A stretch of DNA of 64,000 nucleotides from a virus (Duplodnaviria; Caudoviricetes), in the IMG/VR virus record IMGVR_UViG_2974511964_000001, positions 64,001-128,000 of that record. One strand, written 5' to 3'. Shown here in pieces: positions 3,777 to 61,266 of the stretch. The notes under the pieces are model-generated. The model was not told the origin of the DNA. It saw only the letters and a list, made by a program, of their open reading frames with translations, and did not search any database. The stretch's first letter is position 1. Every line of letters begins with the position of its first letter. A program made the translations under genes and the position numbers.

Positions 3777-3815
3777 TTGACAAAGGATACCAGACATGGT
3801 ATCCTTTTATTATAG
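3777..3815 (+). promoter_or_regulatory. Hairpin sigmaA-type promoter cassette, copy 1
   Basis: TTGACA-17-TATCCT with extended TG; inverted repeat AAAGGATACC/GGTATCCTTT followed by a T-run. Confidence 0.8.
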
Positions 3816-3838
3816 AAAAAGAAAGAAGGATATTAATT

Positions 3839-4249
3839 ATGAGTTATTCAGAAGCAATGGCTAAACATTATCAAGATAAACGGAAAGATATTAATACTAA
3901 TTATCAATTAGAGGATGCAACTACTTATCTTTTCAAGAAGGGAGTAACTGTTTATTCTAAAATTAAGCTTGATAGCAATATCTTTGGTCGGGTAAAAGAA
4001 ATCATAAGAAAAAACGACAATGATTGTGATTACTTTATTGATTCCCCTATCTATTCAGATGAATTTATGAAGGAACGTAATAAGGAAATTGCTAGTGCTG
4101 AAACAGTTGATGAATTAGTAGCTTACCTAGATGACCTTGATGAAAGTATCAAAGTTATCAGGGCAGATGATTATGTGGAAAAAGGATTAGGACTTGAACA
4201 ACAGGTAGCAAGTGACGGGATTCATCTAAAGACATATCTTTACATTTAA
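3839..4249 (+). CDS. Hypothetical protein
   Basis: ORF with SD GAAGGA, downstream of the promoter. Confidence 0.75.
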   Translation: MSYSEAMAKHYQDKRKDINTNYQLEDATTYLFKKGVTVYSKIKLDSNIFGRVKEIIRKNDNDCDYFIDSPIYSDEFMKERNKEIASAETVDELVAYLDDLDESIKVIRADDYVEKGLGLEQQVASDGIHLKTYLYI

Positions 4250-4261
4250 GGAGGCTCTACC

Positions 4262-4750
4262 ATGACAGTGGCTAATAAGCTTAAGTATAATAATGAGCTA
4301 GAAGGTATCTATGAATACGCTGATAAAGTGCTAGATGGTTGGTTACAGTTTAACTATAGTCTCATGGAAGAAAGGCTAGCCAGTAAGCTAAACAAGTTCT
4401 TTGATGGAGTAGGAAAAGGCCATTTTGAAGATGTTATGGGACATGACTCTGATGAGGATGTATTGCCAATTGACATCACTGTGGACCAGGTAGCTTACCT
4501 AGCTCAGCGAGTAATTATTATAATGAATGACAGTAGCAATGTATTTGCCGCCCTAAATAATATTGTACCAGCTAGAAATATCAAGATATATGACAACTTA
4601 TTTGGTACCTATGTATCAATTGATGCTGTCAATAAGCCAATGAATTATTATCGAGGCATCTATGGAAGCATTCAAGAATTTTTAGATGATTACCATGGTA
4701 TGACAGAAACAAATTTACTTGGAGGTGACAAAGTTGGACAAAACTTATAG
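4262..4750 (+). CDS. Hypothetical protein
   Basis: ORF with SD AAGGAGG. Confidence 0.8.
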   Translation: MTVANKLKYNNELEGIYEYADKVLDGWLQFNYSLMEERLASKLNKFFDGVGKGHFEDVMGHDSDEDVLPIDITVDQVAYLAQRVIIIMNDSSNVFAALNNIVPARNIKIYDNLFGTYVSIDAVNKPMNYYRGIYGSIQEFLDDYHGMTETNLLGGDKVGQNL

Positions 4751-5339
4751 CAAACAGTTAGATGAATTTAAGCGTCTTCACCATGAATTGTCTGAGACCA
4801 TTAATAAATTCAATGAATCATTTAATAAGATTGAGGAATTAATTGATGAAATTTCTAAACGGGAGTTTGGCCTAGAGCTACCTGAGGTTAATTATGAGGA
4901 AGATAAGTACGACCCAGTACCTTGTGATGATACCGATGTTAGCGGAATTAGTATTCGGTTGACTAATGTTAATACTGGGAAGTCAGCAACCTATAGTTCG
5001 CTAGCAAAAGCTGCCAATATGAATCATATTTCTGTTAGTGCAATTAGCATTGCTAGTCGTAAGGGGAGTTTAATCTATGGTGTACTAAAGGTTGAGCGTT
5101 TAAAGGAAAAACCGTTGACGACTAATAATATGCGAAGAGTTTCGGTGTATGATGGAGATACTAATAAGGTATATAGTTCTGTTTTAGAGGCTAGTCAAGA
5201 GGTAGGAGTTAACTACTCAGATTTTTCTACCGCATTAAGCTATGGTGAGATTACAAACAAGTATGGTCATCACTACCAGATTAAACGATTAGATGAACGC
5301 AAAGACGAAAATCATAGCATTGAGTTACCTAAGATTTGA
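4719..5339 (+). CDS. Coiled-coil protein with two NUMOD1/IENR1-like DNA-binding repeats
   Basis: YSSLAKAA and VYSSVLEASQEVGV repeats; no nuclease motif. True start is probably TTG at ~4734 after GGAGG. Confidence 0.6.
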   Translation: MEVTKLDKTYSKQLDEFKRLHHELSETINKFNESFNKIEELIDEISKREFGLELPEVNYEEDKYDPVPCDDTDVSGISIRLTNVNTGKSATYSSLAKAANMNHISVSAISIASRKGSLIYGVLKVERLKEKPLTTNNMRRVSVYDGDTNKVYSSVLEASQEVGVNYSDFSTALSYGEITNKYGHHYQIKRLDERKDENHSIELPKI

Positions 5340-5354
5340 AGGTGGTGATAACTA

Positions 5355-18509: not shown

Positions 18510-19106
18510 ATGAACTTGAATTTGGAAACTGAGGAGCTAAAAACATTATTACCACATTGCAAAGTAACTGATGATTATGTTGCTTTCTTCTCAGATAAAA
18601 GTGTGTTTAGCAATGGGTATGATTGTGAGTTTAACTATGATGACAAGGGCGTACATAGCGCTCAACAAGCCTTAGTATATGGAAAAGCTTTATTGTTGGG
18701 AGATTACTCCATAGCAGAAAAGGTATTAGATACTAAGAATACCCCTATGGCTTATCACAACCTAAACAAGCAGATTAATGGTGATGTTAACTTATGGGAA
18801 AATTATCGTAGTCGAGTAATGATTTCTATTTTAGACGATAAGTTTAATGATAGCGAACGTCTATACTTGCTTAAAGCTACTGGTAACCGTAAGCTGTTAC
18901 TAGCATCCCCTTATGATAGCATTTGGGGTATTGGTGCCGGTCTTAGCAAGGTAGATACGGTATGGGATAGTTATACTGGTAAAAACTTGTTGGGTGAGTC
19001 TTTGATGAAAGTACGCAACAATAACTACAAATCATGGCCGGTATTCACTGCTCAAACACAGGAAGCTGATATTTATAGTACCTCTGCTAGCTTGCTGTCA
19101 TACTAA
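18510..19106 (+). CDS. NADAR (YbiA-like) domain protein
   Basis: FSNGY..F, SAQQ..VYGKA, KF, LLKATGNRKL..ASPYDSIWGIG, GKNLLGESLMKVR. Confidence 0.9.
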   Translation: MNLNLETEELKTLLPHCKVTDDYVAFFSDKSVFSNGYDCEFNYDDKGVHSAQQALVYGKALLLGDYSIAEKVLDTKNTPMAYHNLNKQINGDVNLWENYRSRVMISILDDKFNDSERLYLLKATGNRKLLLASPYDSIWGIGAGLSKVDTVWDSYTGKNLLGESLMKVRNNNYKSWPVFTAQTQEADIYSTSASLLSY

Positions 19107-19116
19107 GGAGGGTACT

Positions 19117-19614
19117 ATGAAACCACTCATAATTGCGGTATTGATAACCTTTTACTGTATTGCCTTAGCACTTAGCTGGTGTACAGCCCTCGAACGTTTT
19201 GCTAATCCTAATAACGAGGTAGGACAGTCACTGTTAGACAGTTCAATAGCAATGCTCATAGCTACAGTAGCAACACTGTATCTTCTAATTGGTGGCAGTG
19301 TGGTATCGTCAAGAACTGTGCATACTAGTTATCCAATTGATAGGGTTGCTAGAACGGGTGACTATGTAACTGTTGCTGCTAAGGGGCATAAGGATATTAG
19401 AATTGACCTAAGTAAAACTAAGTCGGAGCCCTATAGTGATAAGGATGTTGTTAGAATTACTGATGAACAATATATCACTAGTGTTAAACTGTTCCAAGCT
19501 ATGTTTGGCAGCGAGGTACTCGGGCACGATAAACATTATTCAGTATACCTAGATGGTCCAGACACTATTAGAGATTTATACAGCACAGGCAAGGGGTTCA
19601 CACATACTAATTAA
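19117..19614 (+). CDS. Membrane protein (paralog of the next gene)
   Basis: Two TM helices; shares ..YCI.L..SW and Y.VYL with 19627..20103. Confidence 0.75.
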   Translation: MKPLIIAVLITFYCIALALSWCTALERFANPNNEVGQSLLDSSIAMLIATVATLYLLIGGSVVSSRTVHTSYPIDRVARTGDYVTVAAKGHKDIRIDLSKTKSEPYSDKDVVRITDEQYITSVKLFQAMFGSEVLGHDKHYSVYLDGPDTIRDLYSTGKGFTHTN

Positions 19615-19626
19615 GGAGGTTAAATT

Positions 19627-20103
19627 TTGGCATTTATAATTGTAGTAGCTATGATTGCATATTGTATAGTTTTATCGTTTAGTTGGTATAATGCTATTGG
19701 ATATCTTAAGGACCCTCATAGTGGCGACTTTGAAGATATTCTGATTGGCTTAACAGTAGTTACATCAATAGTTTTAATGTTTGTTGTAAGTCTTTCAGTG
19801 CTTTATGACAGAGATGTTAGTACAAGCATCAGAATTACTGAGGTAGCTAAAGTTGGTAATCGAGTGACTGCTATCCATAACGGCGCTGAAATAACTAAAG
19901 TTAATATTGACAAGGTTAAGATAAGTGAGAATAATCATGACTATGTAAAGGTTGAAAATAGCCAGAAAATCATGCGGAGTAAAACGATGCAAGCTATAAA
20001 AGGTTCTAAAATACTAACACAGGATAAGGAATATACTGTTTATCTAGGTAATAGAAGTACCCTAAATGAATTAGGAATAAGGGTTCATAAAAGTAATAAA
20101 TAA
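19627..20103 (+). CDS. Membrane protein (paralog of the previous gene)
   Basis: Two TM helices; TTG start after AAGGAGG. Confidence 0.75.
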   Translation: MAFIIVVAMIAYCIVLSFSWYNAIGYLKDPHSGDFEDILIGLTVVTSIVLMFVVSLSVLYDRDVSTSIRITEVAKVGNRVTAIHNGAEITKVNIDKVKISENNHDYVKVENSQKIMRSKTMQAIKGSKILTQDKEYTVYLGNRSTLNELGIRVHKSNK

Positions 20104-20106
20104 GTA

Positions 20107-20145
20107 TTGACAAAGGGTGCTTTAACTGGTACCCTTATATACATA
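20107..20145 (+). promoter_or_regulatory. Hairpin promoter cassette, variant
   Basis: TTGACA-17-TACCCT; AAGGGTGC/GTACCCTT arms. Confidence 0.65.
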
Positions 20146-20175
20146 AACAAATACAATGAGAGTAGATGACAACTG

Positions 20176-20805
20176 ATGGGATTATCAAATCGAGACAAGC
20201 GGATTTTAGCAAGTAAACAAATTTACATGAGCAGATATAGCTTTCCATATCATGAGATGGCTGAGTTTCTGAACTCCGATAAGTTTATTAATATGTCTAT
20301 TGGAGACATTATTGAAACACCTCAGCTAGGAGAGGGGTTGTACGTAGACTACATTAAACGTCCCAAGTTAAAGAGTCACCTTGATAAAGAATTTGTAGAA
20401 CTGTCTTTAACTAGTAAAAGACTAGACACTTTAAAATATTCTAACAAATGCATTTGTTGTGGGCTAGAAGGAGTAGCGTTTAATCCTAGTATGTCATCAT
20501 GTACTAAAGGGTACAGAGGGCATATTAACCTTTACAGCAATAAAGGAGTATTATTTACAGTTGACCATTTAAAACCCCACTCTCTGGGCGGACGAACAGA
20601 AGCAGATAATTTAGTAACTTGCTGTATTGAGTGTAATAACTTGAAGGGTTCAACCTACAAGCCGTGGAGCTGGATTCGAGAACAGATTTTAAGAAGTAAA
20701 GGCGATATTAATAAACTATCCAACCAGCTAACTGGTGGGGGCCATTCAACTAACTACTTAACAAGCGTTTACGAAAGAATTTTATGGGAGGAGGATAACA
20801 AATGA
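20176..20805 (+). CDS. HNH endonuclease
   Basis: CICCG...TVDHLKPHSLGGRTEADNLVTCCIECNNLKG. Confidence 0.9.
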   Translation: MGLSNRDKRILASKQIYMSRYSFPYHEMAEFLNSDKFINMSIGDIIETPQLGEGLYVDYIKRPKLKSHLDKEFVELSLTSKRLDTLKYSNKCICCGLEGVAFNPSMSSCTKGYRGHINLYSNKGVLFTVDHLKPHSLGGRTEADNLVTCCIECNNLKGSTYKPWSWIREQILRSKGDINKLSNQLTGGGHSTNYLTSVYERILWEEDNK

Positions 20806-21218
20806 GAGTTAAGGACACAAAAGTAGGTCAAAAATTATACCTTAATTACTATGATTCAGACAAGGACAAAGTGATTCAGAAAGAAGTGTATGCTACTAAG
20901 GTAAACACTCAGAGGCTCTATTTCAGTACTAATCCCCATACTGATAACCTTTCTTATCAGTGGGTGAAATCTTCTGGTAAGTACCCTAAGATATACCGAG
21001 CAAACTTTTTAGAAATGTATTATTTATCGGATATTCCAGAGTTCACCGGATACTGGGAAAAACATATCGAGCAACGAGCATACTACCATAAAACGTTGAC
21101 AGAAAAGCTTAATGCTATGCTAATGGAAGGTAACACTAAGAAGCTAAGATTAGTAGCGGATAAACTAGATTATATTGACAGATATACAACAAAAGATTAT
21201 TGGGAAGAAGGAAAATAA
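20802..21218 (+). CDS. Hypothetical protein
   Basis: ORF with SD GGAGGA. Confidence 0.75.
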   Translation: MRVKDTKVGQKLYLNYYDSDKDKVIQKEVYATKVNTQRLYFSTNPHTDNLSYQWVKSSGKYPKIYRANFLEMYYLSDIPEFTGYWEKHIEQRAYYHKTLTEKLNAMLMEGNTKKLRLVADKLDYIDRYTTKDYWEEGK

Positions 21219-21220
21219 TA

Positions 21221-21703
21221 ATGACAAATCAAAAGACAGCTTACTATGCCGGAGGTTGGTTTAATGATGTACAGTGTAAACTATTATCCGATGGAAAGAA
21301 AGCTTTAATTGCTAATTCTACAGTTGACTTTGACAACTCGTATGTACCATTAGAACATCAATATAAAGGGCTAGACGTTGATAGCCACCCTGAATTAATG
21401 CAAGACCAAGAATGGCAAGCTGGCACCTATCTAGGAGATGTATCAGGTATCTCTGGCACAGACTTAGTGGTAGCTTTTATTGACCCTGATGAAGTAGACC
21501 CCGGGACTACGTTTGAAATGGGATATGGTATGGCTATTCACAAGCCAGTGGTGGTTGTTATTCCAGATAAGCCAGAAGGAGAAGTTACCGAACTTAATCT
21601 AATGGTAGCCAAAGGATGTACCCAAGTAATCACAATGAGTGAATTAGTGACTTTTAACTTTAACCTTATTCCAGCTAAGCCATATTTAGGTAAAGTATTT
21701 TAA
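21221..21703 (+). CDS. ndt: Nucleoside 2'-deoxyribosyltransferase
   Basis: YYAGGWF, YVPLEHQY, D..GI..TD, DPGTTFEMGY, LNLMV; Lactobacillus-type. Confidence 0.92.
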   Translation: MTNQKTAYYAGGWFNDVQCKLLSDGKKALIANSTVDFDNSYVPLEHQYKGLDVDSHPELMQDQEWQAGTYLGDVSGISGTDLVVAFIDPDEVDPGTTFEMGYGMAIHKPVVVVIPDKPEGEVTELNLMVAKGCTQVITMSELVTFNFNLIPAKPYLGKVF

Positions 21704-21710
21704 ATAAATA

Positions 21711-21750
21711 TTGACAAAGCATATCAGAAATTGTATGCTTTTATTATAGA
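21711..21750 (+). promoter_or_regulatory. Hairpin promoter cassette
   Basis: TTGACA-17-TATGCT; AAAGCATA/TATGCTTT arms. Confidence 0.8.
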
Positions 21751-21765
21751 AAGAAGGAATAAAAT

Positions 21766-24156
21766 ATGAGAGTCATTTATTGTACAGTAGGAATGCCAGC
21801 ATCTGGCAAGAGTACATTTTTGAAGCATTCACCATTAAAAGATTATGTGGTTGCTACTGATGAGTTACGTAAACTGGTATCAACACCACAAATTAATTAT
21901 ACACCTGACACTGATGCAATTACTGTTGGGTTAAATAATGACATTAATAAAAAGATTTGGGATATGACTTATACACTGGTTGAGGATAGAATGAAGAACG
22001 GTGAAACTATTGCAGTTGATGCAACTTTTCTGTTTAAGTCTCCCTTCTCAACTATTAAAAAGTTATGTAAGCTATACAATTATCGTTTGATTACAATTGA
22101 TTTTATTAATACCGGATTATCTTTTGAACAATTATTAGACCGAAATAATAATATTGACCGAGTGCAAGAGCACAAGGATGTATCTTATGATACTATGAAG
22201 AAGTTCTGGAATCGCCAGCAGAATATCACTGTCCCTAACAACTGGAACATGATTAAACCCGAAGAGCTAGAACAATCATTAGCTTGGCACTGCTCCAATG
22301 TTGACAACTATAAACAAGTTATCGTTATTGGGGATATTCACAGTAGCTACACAGTATTAACTGCTGCTCTTAAAGACAATGACCCAATTGATAACCCTGA
22401 TAAGTTATATGTTTTCTTAGGGGACTACTTAGACCGAGGAACTAAACCAGCAGAAACATTCAAGTGGCTATATGAACGCAAGGATTTACCTAATATGGTT
22501 CTACTACGAGGTAACCATGAGTATCATTTAGAACACCACTACCAAGGACTACCTATCACTAATAGTGGTGCTCGTAAGGAAACAATTCCAGCATTATATA
22601 AAGCAGGTATTACTAAGGAAGATATTCGTAAGTTTGTCCGTAAGCTACAAGATGTTTACTATATTGAATATCATGGTCAAAAGTATTTATTCAGCCATGC
22701 TGGGGTTCCTACAACCCCTGAGTTTTTAAAGACAACCACAGGCATTCCACTATTTGTGGATACTAAAATTGGCTTAGAAGAAATTAACCTATTAGATGAA
22801 TCTGTGTTTACTAAGGGTATTGGTGGTTTTAAAATTAATCTAGAACAATACAATCATGATTATAGTAATAGCACGGTTTACCCAATTCAAATTCACGGCC
22901 ACCGCAATGTTCAGCTTAACAAGGCTAAGTGGGATAATACCATCAACCTAGAACAACAAGTAGATACTGGGGGTAACTTAGCCATGGTAGTGCTAACGGG
23001 TGATAAGCATGAGATTAAGCTGGTTAAAAATAACGACTTTGACTATGCCTACGCTACTGACAAGGCCGATATTGATTTAAATATCCTTAGTAATGAACAG
23101 GTTAAAGACATTATGGAAAGAACCAAAGGGATTAGACAGAAACGTGATGCTAGTGGATTAACTGCTAACAACTTTACCCCAGAAGTTTTTTATGGTGATA
23201 ATTTTAATAAGTTTAGTGTAACTGCCAGAGGTCTATTTACTGACAGCAATGGTGATGTGCAACTACGTGGGTTTAACAAGTTCTTTGTTCTCGACCAGCG
23301 TCCTGAAACCAAGCTAACCGCAGTGCTAAAGAATGCTAAATACCCTGTGGTTGCTGCTAAAAAGTACGATGGTCACTTATCCTTACTAGGGTGGTACGAC
23401 GGGAAGCCCCGTATGTTTACCAAGAGTGGCTCGACTAATCTAGCCAAGGTTGACTGGCATAACTTTAGTCGGTACCTGCACGATATTGATAGGTATACAT
23501 TCATGGAAGACTGGCTAAAATTGCATCAGAATAAGACGATTTTAATGGAGTCTCTTAACGAAGCCGAAGATGCTCACTTAGTGGATACTCATGGTAAGGT
23601 TGGCTTTAGATTGTTAGAAGTAATTGAAAATAAGTATGAGCCTACTGGTGGACGTAATTTCACAGATACTAACTTGCTAACCGCATTACTAGGGGAAACT
23701 GACAAATGCTACTTTAAGATGGCTGAACGGTATGAAATTGCTAATGACAGGGAATTAATGGAACTAATTAATAGTTCTAAACAAACTAACTACAAGTTGC
23801 CATTGGGTAGTTACTATCAAGGGATTGACCCAACTACTTATGAAGGTTGGGTATTGACATTTGCTGATGGTTTTAAGATTAAGGTTAAAAATGCCTATTT
23901 CTTAGCAATCAAAGAATTTCGTAATAAGCTAGAAGTGGCCTTAGATAACCCAATGTATTATAAGGGTAACGCTTGGAATAACCTAGTTGACCGCAGTTAT
24001 AATGAACAAGCTAAGCGATTATTAAGAGCTGTTGCTGGTAAAGAGTTTGCACCTTTCTTTGAAAATCGAGATAAAATGAGTAATATTGACCTACCACAAG
24101 CTTTGAAAGCTACTGGGCTAGACCATAATAAGATTGTTGAAATTGTGAGTGACTAA
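21766..24156 (+). CDS. Polynucleotide kinase - metallophosphatase - RNA ligase fusion (PNKP-like RNA repair enzyme)
   Basis: P-loop GMPASGKST and VDAT; GDIH, GDYLDRG, RGNHE, HGH; ligase ARGLF, KFF, KYDG, EGWV, KVK. Confidence 0.9.
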   Translation: MRVIYCTVGMPASGKSTFLKHSPLKDYVVATDELRKLVSTPQINYTPDTDAITVGLNNDINKKIWDMTYTLVEDRMKNGETIAVDATFLFKSPFSTIKKLCKLYNYRLITIDFINTGLSFEQLLDRNNNIDRVQEHKDVSYDTMKKFWNRQQNITVPNNWNMIKPEELEQSLAWHCSNVDNYKQVIVIGDIHSSYTVLTAALKDNDPIDNPDKLYVFLGDYLDRGTKPAETFKWLYERKDLPNMVLLRGNHEYHLEHHYQGLPITNSGARKETIPALYKAGITKEDIRKFVRKLQDVYYIEYHGQKYLFSHAGVPTTPEFLKTTTGIPLFVDTKIGLEEINLLDESVFTKGIGGFKINLEQYNHDYSNSTVYPIQIHGHRNVQLNKAKWDNTINLEQQVDTGGNLAMVVLTGDKHEIKLVKNNDFDYAYATDKADIDLNILSNEQVKDIMERTKGIRQKRDASGLTANNFTPEVFYGDNFNKFSVTARGLFTDSNGDVQLRGFNKFFVLDQRPETKLTAVLKNAKYPVVAAKKYDGHLSLLGWYDGKPRMFTKSGSTNLAKVDWHNFSRYLHDIDRYTFMEDWLKLHQNKTILMESLNEAEDAHLVDTHGKVGFRLLEVIENKYEPTGGRNFTDTNLLTALLGETDKCYFKMAERYEIANDRELMELINSSKQTNYKLPLGSYYQGIDPTTYEGWVLTFADGFKIKVKNAYFLAIKEFRNKLEVALDNPMYYKGNAWNNLVDRSYNEQAKRLLRAVAGKEFAPFFENRDKMSNIDLPQALKATGLDHNKIVEIVSD

Positions 24157-24170: not shown

Positions 24171-24210
24171 TTGACAAAGGATACCATAGATGGTATCCTT
24201 TTATTATAGA
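24171..24210 (+). promoter_or_regulatory. Hairpin promoter cassette
   Basis: Near-identical to the 3777 copy over about 50 bp. Confidence 0.85.
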
Positions 24211-24231
24211 AAAAGAAAGAAGGATACTAGT

Positions 24232-24663: not shown

Positions 24664-24664
24664 A

Positions 24665-25881: not shown

Positions 25882-27205
25882 TTGACAAAGCATATCAGAA
25901 ATGGTATGCTTAATACATAGATTAAATTGAAAAGAGGTGATAAAATGTATAAAGCATATAAAATTAGAATTTACCCTAATAGACAACAAGAAACACAAAT
26001 ATTATTAACATTTGGTCATACTAGATTTGTTTGGAACCAAATGTTAGCCATGCAACTAGAACGCTATAAGAATGGTGGTAAGTTTGTTAATGCTTTTGGT
26101 ATGAACTACCTATTGACGCAGTTAAAAAAGGAGTACTCGTGGCTAACTGAATCTCCTAATCAAAGCTTACAGCAGGTATGCAAAGACTTATCAGATGCTT
26201 TTAAAAATCTGTTTGGACATAGAGCGAATAAACCAAAGTATAAGAGTAGAAAATACCCAAAGCAGAGTTATAGGTGTAACCAGAGGATATCGTTAGTAGA
26301 CGGTCACCATATCAAGCTACCAAAACTTAAGACTGTGTACTACCGTTCTGGTAAAGAAATTAAAGGAAAAATTAAAAGTGTAACTATTCGTAAATCACCA
26401 ACAGGTAAATATTATGCTAGCGTTCTGACTGAAATAGAGATTAAACCTTTAGCGAAAACCAAACAAGAGGTTGGAATTGATATGGGAGTTAAGGATTTAG
26501 CAATTACTAGTGATGGTACTAAATACAGAACTATCCGCTTTGATAAGTTATTAGCTGATAAGAAGCATTATTGGGAAGTACGGTTAGCAAGACGCCAAGC
26601 GTTAGCTAAGAAAGAAATAGCATGGGATAAACACAATAGAGTATTAGAACCCAGAGAGTTATCAGATTTTAGCAACTATATGAAAGCCAAACTAATGGTA
26701 GCTAAGTACAGTGAGAAGATAGCTAATCAAAGGAAAGACTATCTTCATAAGATTAGTACTGAGTTAGTAAACCAGTATGATGTTATCAAGGTTGAAGATT
26801 TGAAAGCTAGCAATATGATGAAAAATCACAAGCTATCACGAGCGATTGCTAATCAATCATGGAGAGAGCTACGTTTGATGTTAGAATACAAGTGTGAGTG
26901 GTATGGTAAAAAATTAGTGGTTGTTAGCCCATACAAAACCAGTCAAATTTGTTCATCATGTGGATATGATGATGGCAAACATACCCTAGATGTTAGAGAA
27001 TGGGTTTGTCCTAATTGTGGAGCTAAGCATGATAGAGATATCAATGCAGCTAAGAACATTCTAAAAGCAGAAGCAAAGTAGAAACACAATGTAAGGCTAG
27101 GGACTAGCCGTGGTAAAATAGTTATAGCCTCTGTATACTGCTAGTTTAGGGTATATAAGTTGTAATGTTCCCAGAAGCTCGTTACTTTAGCAACGAGTAG
27201 TTCAT
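25882..27205 (+). mobile_element. IS200/IS605-family (IS1341-like) tnpB-only element, copy 1
   Basis: Hairpin promoter, tnpB and a ~125-nt conserved 3' end; no tnpA; flanks shared with copy 2. Confidence 0.8.
25945..27081 (+). CDS. tnpB: TnpB RNA-guided nuclease
   Basis: KAYKIRIYPN HTH; RuvC GIDMG, VEDL, HDRDINAAKN; zinc finger CSSC/CPNC. Confidence 0.95.
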   Translation: MYKAYKIRIYPNRQQETQILLTFGHTRFVWNQMLAMQLERYKNGGKFVNAFGMNYLLTQLKKEYSWLTESPNQSLQQVCKDLSDAFKNLFGHRANKPKYKSRKYPKQSYRCNQRISLVDGHHIKLPKLKTVYYRSGKEIKGKIKSVTIRKSPTGKYYASVLTEIEIKPLAKTKQEVGIDMGVKDLAITSDGTKYRTIRFDKLLADKKHYWEVRLARRQALAKKEIAWDKHNRVLEPRELSDFSNYMKAKLMVAKYSEKIANQRKDYLHKISTELVNQYDVIKVEDLKASNMMKNHKLSRAIANQSWRELRLMLEYKCEWYGKKLVVVSPYKTSQICSSCGYDDGKHTLDVREWVCPNCGAKHDRDINAAKNILKAEAK

Positions 27206-28726: not shown

Positions 28727-28766
28727 TTGACAAGGGATACCAGAGATGGTATCCTTTTAATATAGA
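28727..28766 (+). promoter_or_regulatory. Hairpin promoter cassette
   Basis: TTGACA-17-TATCCT; GGATACC/GGTATCC arms. Confidence 0.8.
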
Positions 28767-28782
28767 AGGAGGGTATTACTTA

Positions 28783-31476: not shown

Positions 31477-32803
31477 TTGACAAAGCATACCAAAAATGGT
31501 ATGTTTAATACATATATTAAATTGAAAGGAGGTGAAAGTATGTATAAAGCGTATAAAATTAGAATTTACCCTAATAAACAACAAGAAGCACAAATATTAT
31601 TAACTTTTGGACAGACTAGATTTGTTTGGAATAAAATGTTAGATATGCAATTAGAACGATACAGGAATGGTGGTAAGTTTGTTAACGCTTTTAGTATGGA
31701 CTACCTATTGAAGCCACTGAAAAAAGAATATCCGTGGTTAACGGAGGCGCCTGCGCAAAGTCTACAACAGATATGTAAAGACTTATCAGATGCTTTTAAA
31801 AATCTGTTTGAACATAGGGCAGGCAAACCCAAGTATAAGAGCAAAAAGTACCCAAAGCAGAGTTATAGATGCAACCAAAGGATAATGTTAGTAGATGACC
31901 ACCATATCAAGTTACCTAAACTAGGTTCTGTGTACTATCGCTCTGGTAGAGAAATTAAAGGTAAGATTAAAAGCGTAACTATCCGTAAATCTGCTACCAA
32001 TAAATATTATGTTAGTGTCCTAACTGAAATAGAGATAAAACCTCTAGCGAAAATCAAGCAAGAGGTAGGTATTGATATGGGTGTTGCAGATTTAGTAATC
32101 ACTAGTGATGGTAATAAATATAAAACAGTTAGATTTGACAAATTATTAGCTGATAAAAAACACTACTGGGAAGTACGATTGGCTCGTAGAAGGGCTTTAG
32201 CTAAGAAAGAAATAGCTTGGGATAAACACAATAATGTGCTGGAACCGAGAGAGTTATCAGATTTTAGTAACTATATGAAAGCCAAGCTTATGGTAGCTAA
32301 GTATTCTGAGAAGATAGCTAACCAAAGAAAAGACTATCTTCATAAGATTAGTACCGAGCTAGTAAACCAGTATGATGTTATCAAGATTGAAGATTTGAAA
32401 GCTGGTAATATGATGCGGAATCATAAGCTTGCTAGAACAATTGTTAATCAATCATGGAGAGAGCTACGTTTAATGTTAGAATACAAATGTGAATGGTATG
32501 GTAAAGAGCTAGTAATTGTTAATCCATATAAGACCAGTCAAATCTGTTCTGACTGTGGCTATGATGACGGAAAGCATACTCTAGACGTTAGAGAATGGAT
32601 TTGTCCTAATTGTGGTGCTAAGCATGATAGAGACATTAATGCTGCTAAGAACATTTTAAAGGAAGAAGCAAAGTAGAAACACAATGTAAGGCTAGGGACT
32701 AGCCGTGGTAAGATAGTTATGACCTCTGTATATTGCTAGCTTAGGATATATAAGTTGTGATGTTCCCAGAAACTTCTTAAATTTAAAAGGAGAAATAGTC
32801 CAC
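31477..32803 (+). mobile_element. IS200/IS605-family tnpB-only element, copy 2
   Basis: Same architecture and flanks as copy 1. Confidence 0.8.
31540..32676 (+). CDS. tnpB: TnpB RNA-guided nuclease
   Basis: RuvC GIDMG/IEDL/HDRDINAA intact; zinc finger; close paralog of copy 1. Confidence 0.95.
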   Translation: MYKAYKIRIYPNKQQEAQILLTFGQTRFVWNKMLDMQLERYRNGGKFVNAFSMDYLLKPLKKEYPWLTEAPAQSLQQICKDLSDAFKNLFEHRAGKPKYKSKKYPKQSYRCNQRIMLVDDHHIKLPKLGSVYYRSGREIKGKIKSVTIRKSATNKYYVSVLTEIEIKPLAKIKQEVGIDMGVADLVITSDGNKYKTVRFDKLLADKKHYWEVRLARRRALAKKEIAWDKHNNVLEPRELSDFSNYMKAKLMVAKYSEKIANQRKDYLHKISTELVNQYDVIKIEDLKAGNMMRNHKLARTIVNQSWRELRLMLEYKCEWYGKELVIVNPYKTSQICSDCGYDDGKHTLDVREWICPNCGAKHDRDINAAKNILKEEAK

Positions 32804-32823
32804 CAATGTGGTATCCTTTTACC
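32677..32823 (+). ncRNA. TnpB omega/reRNA scaffold plus guide (guide ~32804-32823)
   Basis: Conserved scaffold; terminal hairpin CTTCTT/AAGGAG; ends ATAGTCCAC. Confidence 0.7.
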
Positions 32824-32838
32824 GTGGGGGTGAAGATA

Positions 32839-33312
32839 ATGAATGATGAACCATTAGTTAGAATTGGCGGTAGCCAATCAGACTGGAAGAAGTGGCTAAC
32901 TAAGTCCAAGGGGTTCTATCTGCAAGGGTTTACCACTAAAATTAACCAAGCCACTGACTTAGATGTCAAACAGTCTCCCTTGTACCTTACTCAATTAATC
33001 AGTAGATATCATGACCTAGACCAGAAATTAATTGGCCTTTATCGCTCAGGAGTGGATTCAAGTGTCACTTCGGTTACGTATAATTACTGGGTTGGTATGG
33101 GTAAGATTGTTATAGGCAAAGCTACAGTGCTGATTCAATCACTCAATAATGTTAATACTATTAGTTTCACCTATCAATATCGAGTAACAGCATCCGAGTA
33201 TCGGGCCAAAAACACTAACATTAAGTCCAGACATGCTGGTGGTAATAGTTTGAATGGGCAACGCAAGACTATTGCTAGGTGGCGGGACTATGACAAAGAG
33301 CGCCACAACTAA
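32839..33312 (+). CDS. Conserved hypothetical protein
   Basis: ORF; basic C-terminus with GGN. Confidence 0.7.
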   Translation: MNDEPLVRIGGSQSDWKKWLTKSKGFYLQGFTTKINQATDLDVKQSPLYLTQLISRYHDLDQKLIGLYRSGVDSSVTSVTYNYWVGMGKIVIGKATVLIQSLNNVNTISFTYQYRVTASEYRAKNTNIKSRHAGGNSLNGQRKTIARWRDYDKERHN

Positions 33313-41598: not shown

Positions 41599-41608
41599 AG
41601 TAATTAAG

Positions 41609-41635: not shown

Positions 41636-41649
41636 GTATGGTCATTGAA

Positions 41650-41940
41650 TAGCGTGTATATAAGCGTGTATATAAGCGTGTATACGAGCCGTTATAGGTG
41701 CATGGCAGTATATAGGGCAATAGGTAGTGGGATAGCAATATATAGACAATGTACATTAGTACATACATACGAGCCTACAATACATACATACCTAAGAGGT
41801 AGACAGTACATACATATATACGAGCCTAGCAATACACACATATAGATATATATACGAGCCTAGCAATACACACATATAGATATATATACGAGCCTACAAT
41901 ATATAGTCAATAGGTAGGCAATACATACATACGAGCCTAA
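41650..41940. repeat. Non-coding tandem/dispersed repeat array
   Basis: AGCGTGTATATA x3; ATACGAGCC x6; an exact 34-bp tandem duplication at 41814-41881. Confidence 0.9.
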
Positions 41941-42761
41941 GGTTCACCTATCTTACTAATAATATTACAGTACACAGCCAGCCTAGTTAGTTGACCAGCT
42001 AACCAATCACGTATACAACTAGCCGATTGCTTAATCACTGTACTAGCTAACCAATATGCAATCATATCATGCTGGTTTATATCAACTTATTATGGCTACA
42101 TGTATAGGCTACCTATATACGGCTTATATATGGGCGTGTATTAACAGTTAGCCGTATATAGGTGTAATTATACTGGTGGCAATATAAACGGCTTAGAATG
42201 GCTGCTAGGGGGCTTATATAGGGCGCTTATATTGGTAGCCTATTGCTGCATACAAAAATAACCCTATATACTTTCATATAGGGGTTGACCAGTGGCTAAA
42301 TACATGTTATAATTAGTTATACAATAAAAGAGGAGGTAAAGATAAAACTACATAGTACGGTTACCATGGCTACATAGTCCAAAAGCCTTACTAGTTCTGT
42401 ACGAGGAGTGTATACTTTTTTAAAAATTAACTTAACAATTCCCTAATCATATCCGGTATAGCTTAGACCGTGTAGCTGTGGTGCTGGTACTATTGAGCTG
42501 TTATTAACCTCCTTTACTTTATATACTAAGTATACAGCTATATGGGGTAAATGTCAACCTTTTTAGCAAATTAATTTAAGCTATACCAATTCTAAAATAG
42601 GTCAATACTCACCATAGGCTACATCGACTATAAACGCCGGTATAATAACATTCCTTAAAATAACGATAAAACCGTACCAATTTATTTTGAAATAGTTGTT
42701 GACAGGTTACAAACTAGGGTATATACTATAGTCAATCAATAAGAAAAGAGGAAATTACATT

Positions 42762-43016
42762 ATGAAATTAGATATTAACGTATTAAACCTATTACTCAAC
42801 AAGGAAACCATCCGCTTTATTGCTCAACCTGATAAGAACGGCTTCAGCAAGTCGGTAGTTGTTGGCTCGGTTGGTCATGTATACTCATTAGAGAGAGTAA
42901 GTAGCTTTGAACCATGTAGCAGTCTTACGAACAACAACGTTATCTTAGATGGGGTTAATAAGGATTATAAAACCTTGATGGCGTATCTCAAAGCTAATAA
43001 ATACGAATTATTTTAA
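42762..43016 (+). CDS. Hypothetical early protein
   Basis: Promoter at 42699, TACATT-ATG. Confidence 0.75.
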   Translation: MKLDINVLNLLLNKETIRFIAQPDKNGFSKSVVVGSVGHVYSLERVSSFEPCSSLTNNNVILDGVNKDYKTLMAYLKANKYELF

Positions 43017-43086
43017 ATAGTTCTTGACAAGCCCGAGTATAGGGCATATGATTAAGACATTAAATAAGGAAAAGGAGTATTACATT

Positions 43087-43332
43087 ATGGAAAAACGTGA
43101 AGCATTTGCAAGCATTTCAATTACTAACACAACGGCGCTACTTATTACAGACATCGACGAAGCAGGTGAAAACGTGACCTATTGCGTCAGTGTACTGGAC
43201 GAAGCACAAGCGCCTAAAAGCCACCATGCTAAAATTAGTTACACTATTAAAGATAACGAACCATACTTTAATAGCATTCTAGGACGAATGCATTTGTCTG
43301 AAGCAATGAAGATTACACCAGTTGAAATTTAA
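43087..43332 (+). CDS. Hypothetical early protein
   Basis: SD AAGGAG, TACATT-ATG. Confidence 0.75.
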   Translation: MEKREAFASISITNTTALLITDIDEAGENVTYCVSVLDEAQAPKSHHAKISYTIKDNEPYFNSILGRMHLSEAMKITPVEI

Positions 43333-43408
43333 TTTTGAAAAGTAGTTGACAGGTAGCCATATACCTGCTATACTATAATCAATAAATAAGGAAAGCAGGA
43401 ATTACATT

Positions 43409-43741
43409 ATGATTTTAACAAGCATATTAGACACGGTAAATAGCATTAACGAAGCATGGTTACGGGAATCGTTAAAACGAGAAGCAACCGCTATTAATAA
43501 CAGCACCGATACCCATATGGAAGTTTATAATAACAAGCCTAATCATTTTACAATTGTGGTTGATGATTCGCTTGAATACATGTTAGATACTACCGACTAT
43601 ACAGCTGAACTAACACACCACCCATCAATCTTTAATGATGACACGTTGGAAACCTTACTAGTTGCTATCGTCGATGACAGTGATGATTTTGAAGATAAGC
43701 TAGCATTTGAAGTTATCATGGCTATTTATCATACACTATAA
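43409..43741 (+). CDS. Acidic early protein
   Basis: Promoter at 43347, TACATT-ATG. Confidence 0.75.
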   Translation: MILTSILDTVNSINEAWLRESLKREATAINNSTDTHMEVYNNKPNHFTIVVDDSLEYMLDTTDYTAELTHHPSIFNDDTLETLLVAIVDDSDDFEDKLAFEVIMAIYHTL

Positions 43742-43962
43742 AGCAATTAGGGTTATCCATGGGGGTAGCCCTTTTATATACATCCGTTTATACGCCACTA
43801 TAAGCTTGTTACGGACGTTTTATATTAGGGGTAGTATAATTACACTAGGCATAGTCTAAAACGTCTCACAGGGCTTGTATGGACGTTATAGAGGTATTGA
43901 CACCACCATTATACTATGTTATGCTATATTAGAGTTGAAAGCAGTTGAAAGGTGGTACACTA

Positions 43963-44223
43963 ATGACTAATCATAACAAGCAACAACAAGCATATGCAAC
44001 ACCAGTTAAGGACAAGCTACGGCTATTAACAGGTAAAGTTATCACGCTTAATACCTATAACACTAACTACCCAGTTGAATTTGTCGAACCATTGTTATTC
44101 TATATTGCTTATGGCTTACCTGATAAACTAGACACTAACACATTGACTAGCTATTTCAATCAACACTACACCAAGGGTACACCACTTAATAAAGTAGGAC
44201 TGCACTTAATTAACCCTCACTAG
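43963..44223 (+). CDS. Hypothetical early protein
   Basis: Promoter at 43896, SD GAAAGGTGG. Confidence 0.65.
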   Translation: MTNHNKQQQAYATPVKDKLRLLTGKVITLNTYNTNYPVEFVEPLLFYIAYGLPDKLDTNTLTSYFNQHYTKGTPLNKVGLHLINPH

Positions 44224-44412
44224 GCTATTTTGATAGCTATAAATTAATTTCAATTAGGTGGTTGCATTCAATTGCCTAATATGGTATATTTAAAGAGTAG
44301 AAAAACAAGACATCAACCGGCAAAATAAAATAAATTAAATTCAATTAGTTGTTGACATGTTAGAATATGAGGTTTATACTTAAGTCATTCAATAAGCAAA
44401 GGGGTTTTATAC

Positions 44413-44754
44413 ATGATTAAATTAGAGAACACGATTAAAGTTTTTGTACCAGTAACTAACAATGACGGGGTAAAGGTTGACTTAAACCCTGAAATTAAAG
44501 CCGCCTTAACGGTTATCGGGGGCGCCACTACCTATACAGCCCGAGGCAATTGGACGGACAATAACAGGCTGTACACCGATAACATTAACGTTATGCAGTT
44601 CAATACTATGGACTTTAACAAGGACACTACTCGGGTTATCAGTGACCTAATTCGTGCAATCTTTATTAAAGCCGAGCAACTAGCCGTTAGCGTTGAAATT
44701 AACGGGGTTCTATACATTTTAGAAAGTACTGAAGATATTAAAGAATTATTTTAA
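44413..44754 (+). CDS. DUF3574/PII-like fold protein (possible SAM-lyase relative)
   Basis: FVP...GGATT..ARGNW...D...QLAVSV pattern. Confidence 0.5.
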   Translation: MIKLENTIKVFVPVTNNDGVKVDLNPEIKAALTVIGGATTYTARGNWTDNNRLYTDNINVMQFNTMDFNKDTTRVISDLIRAIFIKAEQLAVSVEINGVLYILESTEDIKELF

Positions 44755-44825
44755 AATAGCTGTTGACAACTTAAAAAGTAGGGTATATACTTAAGTCATT
44801 AAATAAGAAAAGGAAGTTATACATT

Positions 44826-54104: not shown

Positions 54105-54166
54105 ATTAAACGCCTCTTTCCTTTCTATAATAAAATTATATCACCACTGGTATGTTCTTGTCAAGT

Positions 54167-55021: not shown

Positions 55022-55043
55022 ACAACTATCCTTCTTTCCTCTT

Positions 55044-55083
55044 CTATAATAAAAGCATACCCTTTTCTAGTATGCTTTGTCAA
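55044..55083 (-). promoter_or_regulatory. Hairpin promoter cassette
   Basis: TTGACA-18-TATGCT; AAAGCATAC/GTATGCTTT arms. Confidence 0.8.
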
Positions 55084-58202: not shown

Positions 58203-58223
58203 AGCATGTGCCTCTTTCCTTTT

Positions 58224-58263
58224 CTATATTAAAAAGGATACCATTTCTGGTATCCTATGTCAA
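58224..58263 (-). promoter_or_regulatory. Hairpin promoter cassette
   Basis: TTGACA-17-TATCCT; AGGATACCA/TGGTATCCT arms. Confidence 0.8.
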
Positions 58264-58582: not shown

Positions 58583-58595
58583 CACTTGGCCTCCT

Positions 58596-60392
58596 TTACT
58601 TAACTTCAAATTTTTGGTCCTTATAATATTTAACACGTTGTTTAGCCTGATTAAATAAATATTCAGCGTTCCTATCAATGATATCAAATATATATACTTC
58701 ATGTTTATCTGCTGATATACGGAGTAAACGACCAATTCTTTGAAGAGTCTGAACAAATGATTTTCCGGCACTAGCATAAATCATATAACGAATATTTGGA
58801 ATGTCGATACCTTCGTCCATTACTTTAGTACCAATAAGAACTTTTAATTCTCCAGAGCGAACCCGGTTTAATATGTCGGTGCGCTCCTCTGTAGTATTTT
58901 TCCCTTGAATGAAAGCATACTCGGTATCAGTTTTTCCTAAATATTCAGCGATGTTCTCTCCGTGTTCAATAGAGTTAACTACAATAAGTACAGCTCCGTT
59001 ATCAAGGCTAGACAACTTACTTCCTAGTTCAGCTATCAGCTTATTCCTGTCTTCATTATTAGTTATACCTATTTGGTAAGTCAGCTGGTATTTAACTAGA
59101 CTCTCTTGGTTGCTTGGGGTCCCTTTTGGAATGCTGCGATTGACTTGTTTTTCTAAATCGACTGGTTTATTAAAGTCAACTAGCTTGATATGAGGTCTTG
59201 CAGATACCCCTTGCTCAATCATTTGGTGATTATCAATATCATATATAATATCCCCAAGAACGCTTTTAATCTTAGCCATCTCTACCTTTTTACCTTTATC
59301 TAAGGTACCGGTCAACCCAATTCTCAAACGAGCATTAGGTAAGAATTTAAAGGCTTCCTGATATGAGTCAGATGAAGCGTGTTGGCATTCGTCAACCATA
59401 ACAATCTTTACATGTGATAAGTATTCTACTGCCACATTATATTTGTCAAATCCTTTGGCGTTCTTCTTAGAAATTAGTTTATTGTATCGCTTTTTAAAGT
59501 TTTCAAAATATTTGATGACAGCTTTATCAGAATCCAAAGAAACTGCAAGTGAAGCTAGCTCTTGTTTGTCATCTATTTCATACTTATACTTAGGTTTAAA
59601 ATTCTTAGCATACCCTTTTAACGACTGCCTAGGATTAACCGAATCAAGAATATCTTTAGCATATACAGTTGCCATTCGCTTTAGTAGCTTATCTTTGGCA
59701 GAAGTTAGCTTAACAGCATCCTCAGGGTTCTTAAGGGCTTTGTTAAGCGTCTGAATAGTGGCACAGGTAACTTGCTTAAGGTCACGATTACCGTCTCCCC
59801 ATAGACCCACAGGCACTCCTAAATACCCTTCCATATTCTTGTGAACTTGATTCATAATAGAAGTATTAGGTGCAATAAACAAAACATTGTCAGTGCTATC
59901 TAATTCTGGTAAAACTTTAGCAATAGATGTAATAGAAATTAATGTCTTACCGGCGTTAGTTGCAGCTAGTACAATCCCTGTTTGATTAGCATAAACAGAC
60001 TTAATTGCTTCTAGCTGATAATCACGAATAGTTACTTTTCTAACCCCTTCACCCTGCATCACAACTTCTTCTGGTAGAGATTTGCTAGGTGCAATCTTTA
60101 TTCCTCTAACATCCTCTAATGAATACTTGATATAGGCATTCTTATTCTGTTCCCGTTGTAATAGCAATAGTAGGTCGCTTACTAGTCCCGTAGGTACTAA
60201 GTTATTATCTAAATCACATAAGTTAACCCGACCATCCCATGTATGATACTTTCTAAAAGAAGCCTTCCTAAACCGGTTAGGGTCTAATGGGTCTAACTCT
60301 TCATGGATTCTATCTTTTATATATTTTATAAATCTATCAGTTTCAGTATCAAAATAAATTTTGGCATAGCTATTACCTATGGTTATTTTCAA
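58596..60392 (-). CDS. SF2 DExH helicase (UvsW-like; Herelleviridae helicase A)
   Basis: RDYQ, ATNAGKT, VDECQH, GLTGT, EGIDIP, QRIGRLLR. Confidence 0.93.
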   Translation of the reverse strand: MKITIGNSYAKIYFDTETDRFIKYIKDRIHEELDPLDPNRFRKASFRKYHTWDGRVNLCDLDNNLVPTGLVSDLLLLLQREQNKNAYIKYSLEDVRGIKIAPSKSLPEEVVMQGEGVRKVTIRDYQLEAIKSVYANQTGIVLAATNAGKTLISITSIAKVLPELDSTDNVLFIAPNTSIMNQVHKNMEGYLGVPVGLWGDGNRDLKQVTCATIQTLNKALKNPEDAVKLTSAKDKLLKRMATVYAKDILDSVNPRQSLKGYAKNFKPKYKYEIDDKQELASLAVSLDSDKAVIKYFENFKKRYNKLISKKNAKGFDKYNVAVEYLSHVKIVMVDECQHASSDSYQEAFKFLPNARLRIGLTGTLDKGKKVEMAKIKSVLGDIIYDIDNHQMIEQGVSARPHIKLVDFNKPVDLEKQVNRSIPKGTPSNQESLVKYQLTYQIGITNNEDRNKLIAELGSKLSSLDNGAVLIVVNSIEHGENIAEYLGKTDTEYAFIQGKNTTEERTDILNRVRSGELKVLIGTKVMDEGIDIPNIRYMIYASAGKSFVQTLQRIGRLLRISADKHEVYIFDIIDRNAEYLFNQAKQRVKYYKDQKFEVK

Positions 60393-60843
60393 CAGATGCT
60401 ACCTCCAATTCTAATCCTAAATCATTAATGATAGTTGTAGCTTGGCTATCTGATAAGTATAAAACTTTATCCATTAACTTCTTCTTAAGATTGATGCGTT
60501 TAGCTACCATTAAATTTAACCCAATATACGTTCGTGCCGAGCTGTACTTGTCTTGCTCAAACTTATAACCCTCAAAAGGCCAATTATTATAAATTTCCTG
60601 TTTGTTAACACTTTGGCTTACTATTAATGGAACTATTATATTAACTATCAAATCCTCAGGGTCCGAGGAAGCTCCTATGAATTTATCTGATAGTCCATCT
60701 CGATTACAATATAGTAATTTATTAGGAGTATCTGTAAAATAATACTCACCTGCATGGTCTTTATATAAATAAAACAACTTGGCTACACCCCACATTTTAA
60801 TCAATACTATATTATAACACAGTATTAGCAGGTTTGCAACCAA
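60373..60843 (-). CDS. Hypothetical protein (true start probably ~60780)
   Basis: ORF upstream of the helicase. Confidence 0.6.
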   Translation of the reverse strand: MVANLLILCYNIVLIKMWGVAKLFYLYKDHAGEYYFTDTPNKLLYCNRDGLSDKFIGASSDPEDLIVNIIVPLIVSQSVNKQEIYNNWPFEGYKFEQDKYSSARTYIGLNLMVAKRINLKKKLMDKVLYLSDSQATTIINDLGLELEVASVENNHR

Positions 60844-60866
60844 ATTGTTTAATTTTAACTAAATTT

Positions 60867-61205
60867 TTATAAAGCTAAGCATACTTTTAAAGTATGTTCC
60901 ATCTTACTTTCTTCCTCTTTGCTAATATGACCAATATATTCAACTAAATCAGCTTTATTAACGGTAACAATAGCTTCAGTTAGCCCTAAACTTTTTCTAG
61001 GTGTTTCCTTAACAATAAAATGTGTTGGCAACGGTACTTTGTGTTGGGTTGTTAGTGGTACTACAATTGTGTTGGGGCTATGCAGATTTCCTAAATTATT
61101 TTGCACAACTACACAAGGCCGTCTCCCAGATTGGATATGGCTCCATGATGGTTGTTCTGGTAAATTAATGTAGTAAATATCCCCACGTTCTAAATCGTTA
61201 TTCAT
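60867..61205 (-). CDS. PemK/MazF-family endoribonuclease
   Basis: RGDIYY.NL...QSGRRPCVVVQN..GN..SP..IVVPLTT. Confidence 0.9.
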   Translation of the reverse strand: MNNDLERGDIYYINLPEQPSWSHIQSGRRPCVVVQNNLGNLHSPNTIVVPLTTQHKVPLPTHFIVKETPRKSLGLTEAIVTVNKADLVEYIGHISKEEESKMEHTLKVCLAL

Positions 61206-61226
61206 TATGATAACTTCCTTTCTTTT

Positions 61227-61266
61227 TCTATAATAAAAGGATACCATTTCTGGTATCCTTTGTCAA
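61227..61266 (-). promoter_or_regulatory. Hairpin promoter cassette
   Basis: Near-identical to the 3777 and 24171 copies. Confidence 0.85.

Follow-up and report, generated by a model that had tools for sequence, protein, structure and literature searches.

The closest described systems are the PeSL elements of the T4-type phages RB49/phi1, PST and nt-1, which combine an AT-rich stretch, a strong sigma-70 promoter and a stem-loop (Arbiol et al. 2010, PMC2839356; Comeau et al. 2014, PMC4122927). There, the stem-loop may sit between, or overlap, the -35 and -10 boxes (PMC2839356), promoter and terminator activity were measured, and the elements were met at indel junctions and formed mini-circles (PMC2839356, PMC4122927). 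Here we describe a repeated unit of ~55 bases that lies between non-structural genes of a virulent Harbinvirus (Herelleviridae) of Lactiplantibacillus plantarum. It was analysed in a stretch of 64,000 nucleotides (‘the window’: bases 64001-128000 of the 137,973-base virus record IMGVR_UViG_2974511964_000001). The repetition is real and strongly non-random. Each unit has the build of a promoter whose spacer can pair with its own -10 region, and the units are probably PeSL-like composites of promoter and hairpin, newly seen in this phage lineage.

A comparison with PeSL had been drawn in a first-pass annotation of this DNA, and it is apt, down to the placement of the stem-loop between or across the two boxes. 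Both are short, intergenic, AT-rich units with a strong promoter and a stem-loop that fill a stop-to-start gap and are dense among accessory genes; PeSL are met at indel junctions between close relatives, a trait that the present units share in part. The differences are of several kinds. The phages concerned here (Herelleviridae and Tybeckvirinae siphoviruses) are unrelated to those that carry PeSL, their host is Gram-positive, and the unit is common to several phage families. Here the stem is rich in AU and invariably has TGn plus the -10 box as its 3' arm, whereas PeSL are described as having usually G-run/C-run stems and five placements. Promoter, terminator and mini-circle activity was measured for PeSL; the present unit is described from its sequence. 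It shows no excess of breakpoints over other gene junctions, and a third of its copies are without a U-run.

For the promoter itself the nearest precedent is Staphylococcus Kayvirus vB_SauM-515A1, in which 58 early promoters mapped by RNA sequencing read TTGACW, 17 bases, TRTGN and TATANT (often TATACT), with transcription starting 6 bases past the -10 box (PMC7698491); the build and the many copies per genome are shared by the units described here. On the other hand, the Kayvirus terminators are described as GC-rich stem-loops followed by poly-T, and the text of that paper available to us reports no complementarity between spacer and -10 box (PMC7698491). Among the papers listed for PeSL or Herelleviridae, none contains both terms, and we found nothing relevant on the promoters of phages LP65 or 8014-B2; the paper on the sister phages Semele and Bacchae mentions promoters once in passing and leaves terminators, hairpins, motifs and these units unmentioned. 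A hairpin is also part of the promoters read by the virion RNA polymerase of coliphage N4, where extruded single-stranded hairpins are recognised by the phage polymerase without -35 and -10 boxes; in the present units, which likewise contain a short hairpin, the sigma-A boxes are intact and invariant.

Copies of the unit and their placement

Long stretches of the genome are 92-96% identical to the L. plantarum myophages Semele, Bacchae and Lpa804 (Herelleviridae, genus Harbinvirus). Genes run on the + strand up to ~45.4 kb of the window and on the - strand from its right end down to 45.6 kb. Within the window, a 15-base core of the motif has 17 matches at ≤3 mismatches against 2.2 expected (the maximum in 100 shuffles was 7); read with their flanks, these are 11 motif copies, one palindromic echo (the mirror arm) of the copy at 58263, and five unrelated sequences. 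A profile built from 13 copies and run over the whole genome recovers all 13, together with a weaker copy at 63950 (E 3.8e-7) and a faint signal for the degenerate copy at 54164. The ten copies and the degenerate one listed by the first-pass annotation were all recovered; to these we add the copy at 63950 (- strand), for an in-window tally of 10 hairpin copies and two degenerate ones (54164, 63950), and three strong copies beyond the window at genome positions + 63027, - 133125 and - 134669. Profile and covariance-model scans found zero full-length copies in genome bases 1-63000, the region in which synteny with the Lpa804 annotation places the virion genes. The scan of whole genome and relatives that had been suggested for this motif, performed with a covariance model, counts 14 copies in this genome, 17 in Lpa804, and 18 each in Semele and Bacchae.

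As had been proposed, the copies lie directly after a stop codon: the upstream open reading frame (ORF) ends 1-15 bases 5' of TTGACA in 11/11 in-window copies for which that ORF also lies in the window. Every in-window copy is followed by a Shine-Dalgarno sequence (SD) and start codon 25-35 bases past the -10 box, and all copies share the orientation of the genes on either side. The unit occupies the entire gap between the stop codon upstream and the next ribosome-binding site, among accessory genes. The same annotation placed a T-run and an SD after each copy: the SD is present throughout the window, and the T-run follows seven of the ten in-window hairpin copies, those at 20107, 25882 and 31477 having TT only. 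Pfam analysis of 22 in-window ORFs agrees with the cargo first listed, namely two TnpB, two HNH, a PemK/MazF, a kinase-phosphatase-RNA ligase fusion and TelA, beside ORFs of unknown type. Below, class I denotes a U-rich tail after the hairpin and class II the absence of a U-run; ORF lengths are in amino acids (aa).

3777..3831, + strand: class I copy after the 83-aa ORF that follows DNA polymerase; heads a unit starting with a 136-aa ORF; -15.5 kcal/mol, z -4.9
20107..20161, + strand: class II copy, stem GGGTGC/GTACCC; heads HNH, a 138-aa ORF and nucleoside deoxyribosyltransferase; z -2.8
21711..21765, + strand: class I copy, recombinant; heads the 796-aa kinase-phosphatase-RNA ligase; weakest hairpin, -7.8 kcal/mol, z -1.5
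24171..24225, + strand: class I copy; siphovirus ATCC 8014-B2 has, behind its own motif, a homologue of the next gene (44% identical)
25882..25936, + strand: class II copy immediately 5' of TnpB no. 1
28727..28781, + strand: class I copy; heads the unit 248-aa / 261-aa / TelA
31477..31531, + strand: class II copy immediately 5' of TnpB no. 2
32802..32840, + strand: motif remnant (loop, 3' arm, leader) left from the resident motif displaced by insertion of TnpB no. 2
54110..54164, - strand: degenerate copy, TTGACA, 18 bases, TGa-TATAAT; hairpin absent (z +0.25), leader retained; heads a YopX-like gene
55029..55083, - strand: class I copy, loop one base longer; heads an I-HmuI-like HNH endonuclease
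58209..58263, - strand: class I copy; heads a 50-aa ORF; -18 kcal/mol, z -6.3
61212..61266, - strand: class I copy; heads a PemK/MazF-like gene
63896..63950, - strand: weak copy, promoter retained (TTGACA, 17 bases, TGt-TATCCT), canonical hairpin decayed; E 3.8e-7

A likely sigma-A promoter that pairs with its own spacer

We aligned 62 copies from the four phages; the alignment is nearly gap-free and contains 50 distinct rows. TTGACA is invariant, as are T, A and T at positions 1, 2 and 6 of a hexamer set off from it by 17 bases (18 in a few copies), and the TG three bases before this hexamer is conserved in ≥90% of copies. The consensus build is TTGACA-N14-TGn-TAT(C/G/T/A)CT, with an AT-rich AAATAAGTG upstream. 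With these hexamers and this spacing, the unit is very likely a sigma-A promoter with an extended -10 box. Further support comes from copies that have lost the hairpin (54164 in the window and its orthologues), which retain the leader and show a perfect TGaTATAAT in place of the usual -10 region, and from two copies outside the window that head ~150-base units without an ORF or SD: the gained TGnTATAAT, the invariant sigma-A columns and the non-coding units all speak for a promoter. Because the same promoter build has been mapped in Kayvirus, its rule can be applied to the copies, and the predicted start then falls ~6 bases past the -10 box, in ATTATAG / ATACATA, 3' of the hairpin's 3' arm. 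Promoter-like sites of this general kind number ~40 at sensible positions in the genome, and 14 of them are of the hairpin type.

The spacer had been read as the reverse complement of the -10 box, and the complementarity in fact takes in the extended element: the spacer AAAGGATACCA is the reverse complement of TGGTATCCTTT, that is, of TGn, the -10 box and TT. Over the resulting 11-pair helix, 93.1% of 550 cells are paired, compared to 86.6% in shuffles (0/500 as high) and 38-50% in slid controls in which the partners were moved by 1-3 columns. The bases change in partnership. Pair 15-33, which includes the fourth base of the -10 box, is G-C in 20 rows, C-G in 16, A-U in nine and something else in five; pair 19-29 is C-G in 27, U-G in 13 and U-A in six; and pair 16-32 is A-U in 40, G-U in seven and G-C in two. 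An independent check used a database pattern in which both bases of pair 15-33 were left free, and 22/22 distinct copies were complementary there. The co-varying arms of the first-pass annotation are borne out, with two refinements: a single G.T wobble is part of GGGTGC/GTACCC, and outside the window there is a fourth type, GAATACC/GGTATTC. Folded as RNA, the ten good in-window copies reach -7.8 to -18 kcal/mol, and 7/10 beat all 200 of their shuffles; among random genomic 36-mers, only 1.5% reach -10 kcal/mol. The variable positions of the helix are, by the alignment, those where the -10 box can afford change, and the compensatory changes make it highly probable that the pairing is under selection.

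A second promoter family, of about a dozen members, occupies the window from 37600 to 44800 on the + strand (genome 101644-108763). Its members read TTGACA-N17-TATACT followed by a conserved TAAGTCATTCAATAAGGAAAGGAG leader; their spacers are free, the hairpin is absent, and each copy heads a small ORF. Spacer hairpins were looked for in this family and rejected: three promoters fold near -7.8 kcal/mol, which is within chance, as 6.8% of random 36-mers reach -7.5.

Proposed action of the unit

We propose that a host sigma-A-type promoter drives the gene behind each unit. Transcripts initiated by the unit would start past the -10 box, so they would lack the hairpin; read-through transcripts would contain both arms (AAAGGAUACCA, UGGUAUCCUUU) and fold into a hairpin of 8-11 bp. 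Given the U-rich tail in about two thirds of the copies, this hairpin should stop or attenuate read-through. Each unit would in this manner be insulated, with its own promoter. Because ~50 conserved bases are met again every 1.5-3 kb, and also in other phages of L. plantarum, the units would act, at least occasionally, as crossover points at which the genes behind them are gained, lost or swapped; a crossover of this sort is documented once, and from it we infer the general role. This overall reading, of a promoter and hairpin cassette that insulates transcription units and occasionally serves as a crossover point, is the one we consider probable.

The hairpin has features of an intrinsic terminator. 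It begins 7-21 bases past the upstream stop codon, is preceded by an A-run, and in 40/62 copies is followed by UUUUAUUAU, i.e., at least six T within nine bases after the inner stem; in this genome, 8/14 copies have such a U-rich tail and resemble intrinsic terminators. It differs from them in that it doubles as a promoter. Termination by the U-tailed copies is plausible on this evidence; for the hairpin in general, we judge the chances that it terminates transcription to be about even.

The case for recombination is clearest at the copy at 21711. Between the deoxyribosyltransferase and RNA ligase genes, Semele, Bacchae and Lpa804 contain 1.1-1.6 kb of extra genes, bounded by a first copy of the unit (TTGACAAAGCATATCAGgAATTG, then unrelated sequence) and by a complete second copy. 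The present genome has a single copy at this junction: its left part, including an odd TTG, matches copy 1 of the sister phages, and its right part, from TATGCTTTT onward, matches copy 2. In Semele and Lpa804 a direct repeat of ~50 bases flanks the extra genes and reaches ~24 bases into the end of the upstream gene; by its sequence, this repeat reads as what a single crossover with a circle, or the reverse event, leaves behind. The same alternative allele appears in a metagenome contig, with a loose end at 21733.

Exchange of cargo is also seen elsewhere. TnpB no. 2 was inserted, along with its own copy of the unit, at a resident copy; the empty site is an intact unit in Bacchae, Lpa804 and a metagenome contig (joint 31482>32802). 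Lpa804 is without the first two genes behind the 20107 copy (HNH and the 138-aa ORF), and here the breakpoint is directly past the motif. In the motif-dense region from 20 to 33 kb, the boundary on the promoter side nearly always falls just inside or just past a unit, so that the variable genes stand directly behind it. We compared this genome with the three sister phages: among 51 indel or replacement events, counted pairwise (so that relatives do not give independent counts), the motif contains at least one boundary of 13 and both boundaries of four, and clustered alignment ends fall inside motif intervals in 9/104 cases against 1.6 expected if they were uniform. Taken from sequence, a recombination role is demonstrated at one junction, 21711; at the other copies it is a proposed role.

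Another replacement involves TnpB no. 1. In window 25882-27593, this gene and its own motif have taken the place of a resident motif and of approximately the first 400 bases of a homologue of Bacchae gp097, of which ORF 27216-27593 is the surviving 3' part.

Several observations weigh against the proposal. The tail is poor (UUAAUACAU, UUAUAUACA) in 22/62 copies, and 5/6 tail-less copies of this genome nonetheless keep strong stems (-11 to -13 kcal/mol) and possess compensatory variants of their own (GAATACC/GGTATTC, GGGTGC/GTACCC). The stem is AU-rich, with only four G-C pairs. A simple terminator scan of window 19000-33000 flagged 0/7 copies, under a rule that counts the tail after the fully extended stem. 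Four RNA runs yielded short, low-depth, fragmentary contigs of relatives that carry neither starts nor ends nor strand; no transcript start or end is found in them, and they were used only for the structural joints 24212>25517, 31482>32802 and 27542>28715. Wobble cells outnumber A.C cells in the helix by 42 to six (39 of the wobble cells being in the nine inner pairs); we rejected this asymmetry as decisive proof of an RNA-level hairpin, because any transition at 8/11 positions of the 5' arm yields a wobble and the count is confounded by the composition of that arm. Finally, the excess of breakpoints over a uniform expectation vanishes when other gene junctions serve as the reference: breakpoints are borne by 7/15 motif junctions and by 42/117 other gene junctions (Fisher p 0.41), and 31/58 other spacers of ≥40 bases have one.

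The first-pass annotation had described one unit that terminates, promotes and recombines. Its promoter part is upheld by the pattern of conservation and its hairpin by covariation; termination survives as plausible for the U-tailed copies only; and the suggested mapping of gain and loss breakpoints gave one motif-to-motif recombinant and 13 events that touch the motif, with no excess over other gene junctions. The tail-less copies keep compensated stems, and therefore termination cannot be the sole role of the hairpin: where pairing is kept without a U-run, something beyond classical termination must maintain it. Factor-assisted termination, protection of RNA 3' ends, a structure-reading protein or a role at the DNA level are possible for these stems.

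Spread among phages

The unit is common to unrelated phages of the same host. Model hits occur in other Herelleviridae genera of L. plantarum/pentosus (eight in LP65, 10 in LpeD) and in the siphoviruses ATCC 8014-B2 (three), Gut-P1 (two) and Maenad (one), with up to 92% identity over ~50 bases; an Enterococcus Herelleviridae phage has one weak, hairpin-less look-alike only. In each of the three siphoviruses, a gene behind the motif has a homologue in a motif-headed unit of this genome: 8014-B2 gp043 resembles the first gene after 24171 (44% over 132 aa), the MazF that is second behind the Maenad motif resembles the first gene after 61266 (39%), and Gut-P1 gene 79 resembles the second gene after 20107 (37%). 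None of the genes upstream of these motifs (0/3) has a homologue in this genome. Therefore, promoter and cargo seem to travel together across phages, with the unit far better conserved than its cargo (37-44% amino acid identity).

The strict motif is absent from species-representative bacterial genomes, Lactobacillaceae included, apart from four hits in metagenome-assembled genomes (MAGs): three lie on Cytophagales-type contigs and resemble an ordinary terminator (hairpin plus T6), and one, in an unclassified MAG, has no T-run after the stem. A host origin of the motif was accordingly rejected. The three related Bacteroidota contigs (Chryseolinea / Cytophagales MAG) share TTGACAAAGGATAYC-TTTTT-AGGTATCCTTTTTT, which looks like an ordinary terminator that matches by chance.

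We also entertain, as a speculation of low probability, a wider role. The unit may be a portable expression plug that unrelated families of phages on the same host have in common: promoter plus gene would leave as a small circle between two copies and enter elsewhere by a single crossover, leaving a direct repeat as at 21711; the conserved pairing would mark the unit for structure-specific recombination or nicking; and the TnpB genes would have adopted the plug as promoter and landing site.

Alternative explanations

The palindrome stands at a classical operator position, and a dimeric phage or host regulator might bind across the spacer and the -10 box and switch this promoter class jointly, the hairpin-less TATACT family being unregulated. 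This alternative, raised already in the first-pass annotation, would suit a spacer that is conserved in the hairpin family and free in the dozen or so promoters of the second family, a pairing that is kept even without a U-run, and a near-identical sequence in unrelated phages of the same host. The substitutions argue otherwise. At the central position both arms change in step (GC, CG, AU), with intermediates in 5/50 cells, which fits base pairing and not a protein that reads the bases, and the nine inner pairs tolerate 39 wobble cells although these disrupt the symmetry of the DNA. Furthermore, the strict motif is missing from the Lactobacillaceae representative genomes, so that no host regulon shares it. 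We consider an operator rather unlikely; the compensatory changes disfavour it, and we keep it at low weight.

About as doubtful, in our estimate, is a hairpin that acts at the RNA level and does not terminate, being instead a 3'-end protector, a pause site or a processing mark between the units of a long transcript. The compensated stems of the tail-less copies would be accounted for in this way, as would the shortness and AU-richness of the stems and their start shortly past the upstream stop codon; against it stands the terminator-type, U-rich tail of 40/62 copies.

Pairing at the level of DNA appears less probable again, and we give it little weight. Here, the inverted repeat would extrude as a cruciform when the phage DNA is supercoiled, and this would either gate the promoter or give a nuclease such as a RusA-like resolvase a site to cut, making the units recombination hot spots; a similar idea is raised by the PeSL authors (PMC2839356). 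The crossover in copy 21711 does fall within the loop/-10 region, TnpB no. 2 was inserted inside a resident motif, and a RusA-like resolvase and a UvsX-like recombinase are annotated in the sister phages. However, arms of 8-11 bp with a loop of 4-8 bases are marginal for extrusion, G.T cells are frequent in the DNA, and breakpoints are not in excess over other junctions.

A reading of the units as what is left of IS200/IS605-type (TnpB) elements, or as the ends of such elements, is largely refuted and very improbable: three TnpB genes here and several in the sister phages stand directly behind a copy, and one is flanked by two copies, but most copies head ordinary genes, the TnpB copies differ in motif variant (Semele 81606 has a GGGTACC stem and an TAGTATAG leader), the motif is present at three siphovirus loci with no transposase among their displayed annotated genes, TnpA is missing both from the displayed annotations of the sister phages and from the 22 in-window ORFs analysed with Pfam, and Rfam, applied at gathering thresholds to the window and three loci, returned 0 matches.

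Neighbouring and related features

We also observed a promoter of related design, in which the spacer pairs not with the -10 box but with the SD, as had been suggested for this site:

61562..61622, - strand: TTGACA, 17 bases and TATACT inside a stem of 11-12 bp that has the SD as its 3' arm; -20.1 kcal/mol

It folds as described in the first-pass annotation. The partner of the spacer ATCTCCTTATC is GATAAGGAGAT, which contains the SD and lies 29 bases downstream; T5 and a two-codon mini-ORF, ATG-GAA-TAG, come next. In this model, the SD would be masked in read-through RNA and unmasked in RNA started at the promoter.

Further observations concern TnpB and RNA. At genome 133100-134700, on the - strand, a third TnpB (396 aa) lies between two direct repeats of 181 bases that are 87% identical; each repeat begins with a motif copy and contains no ORF, and the repeats may be promoter-driven small RNAs. 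After the stop codons of both in-window TnpB genes, ~110 bases are conserved (window 27100-27210 and 32690-32800), ending in ATGTTCCCAGAA, past which the copies diverge; this region is probably a guide-RNA scaffold with different guides. A connection between TnpB guides and the motif was considered and rejected: the sequence past the conserved scaffold differs between the copies and has no clear link to the motif. Finally, the 796-aa protein encoded at window 21766-24156, behind the recombinant 21711 copy, is a fusion of P-loop kinase, metallophosphatase and T4 Rnl1-type RNA ligase, i.e., an RNA repair enzyme.

Implications

Gene-shuffling cassettes of the PeSL type have been documented for T4-type phages of Gram-negative hosts. 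The compensated stems without a U-run pose a specific question about the purpose of the pairing. If the proposal of an insulating promoter and hairpin cassette is true, the units would provide a ready-made map of this phage group's transcription units and a compact, self-insulating expression part for Lactiplantibacillus engineering, and they would represent a concrete case of one regulatory plug, with homologous cargo, that is common to phage families of one host.

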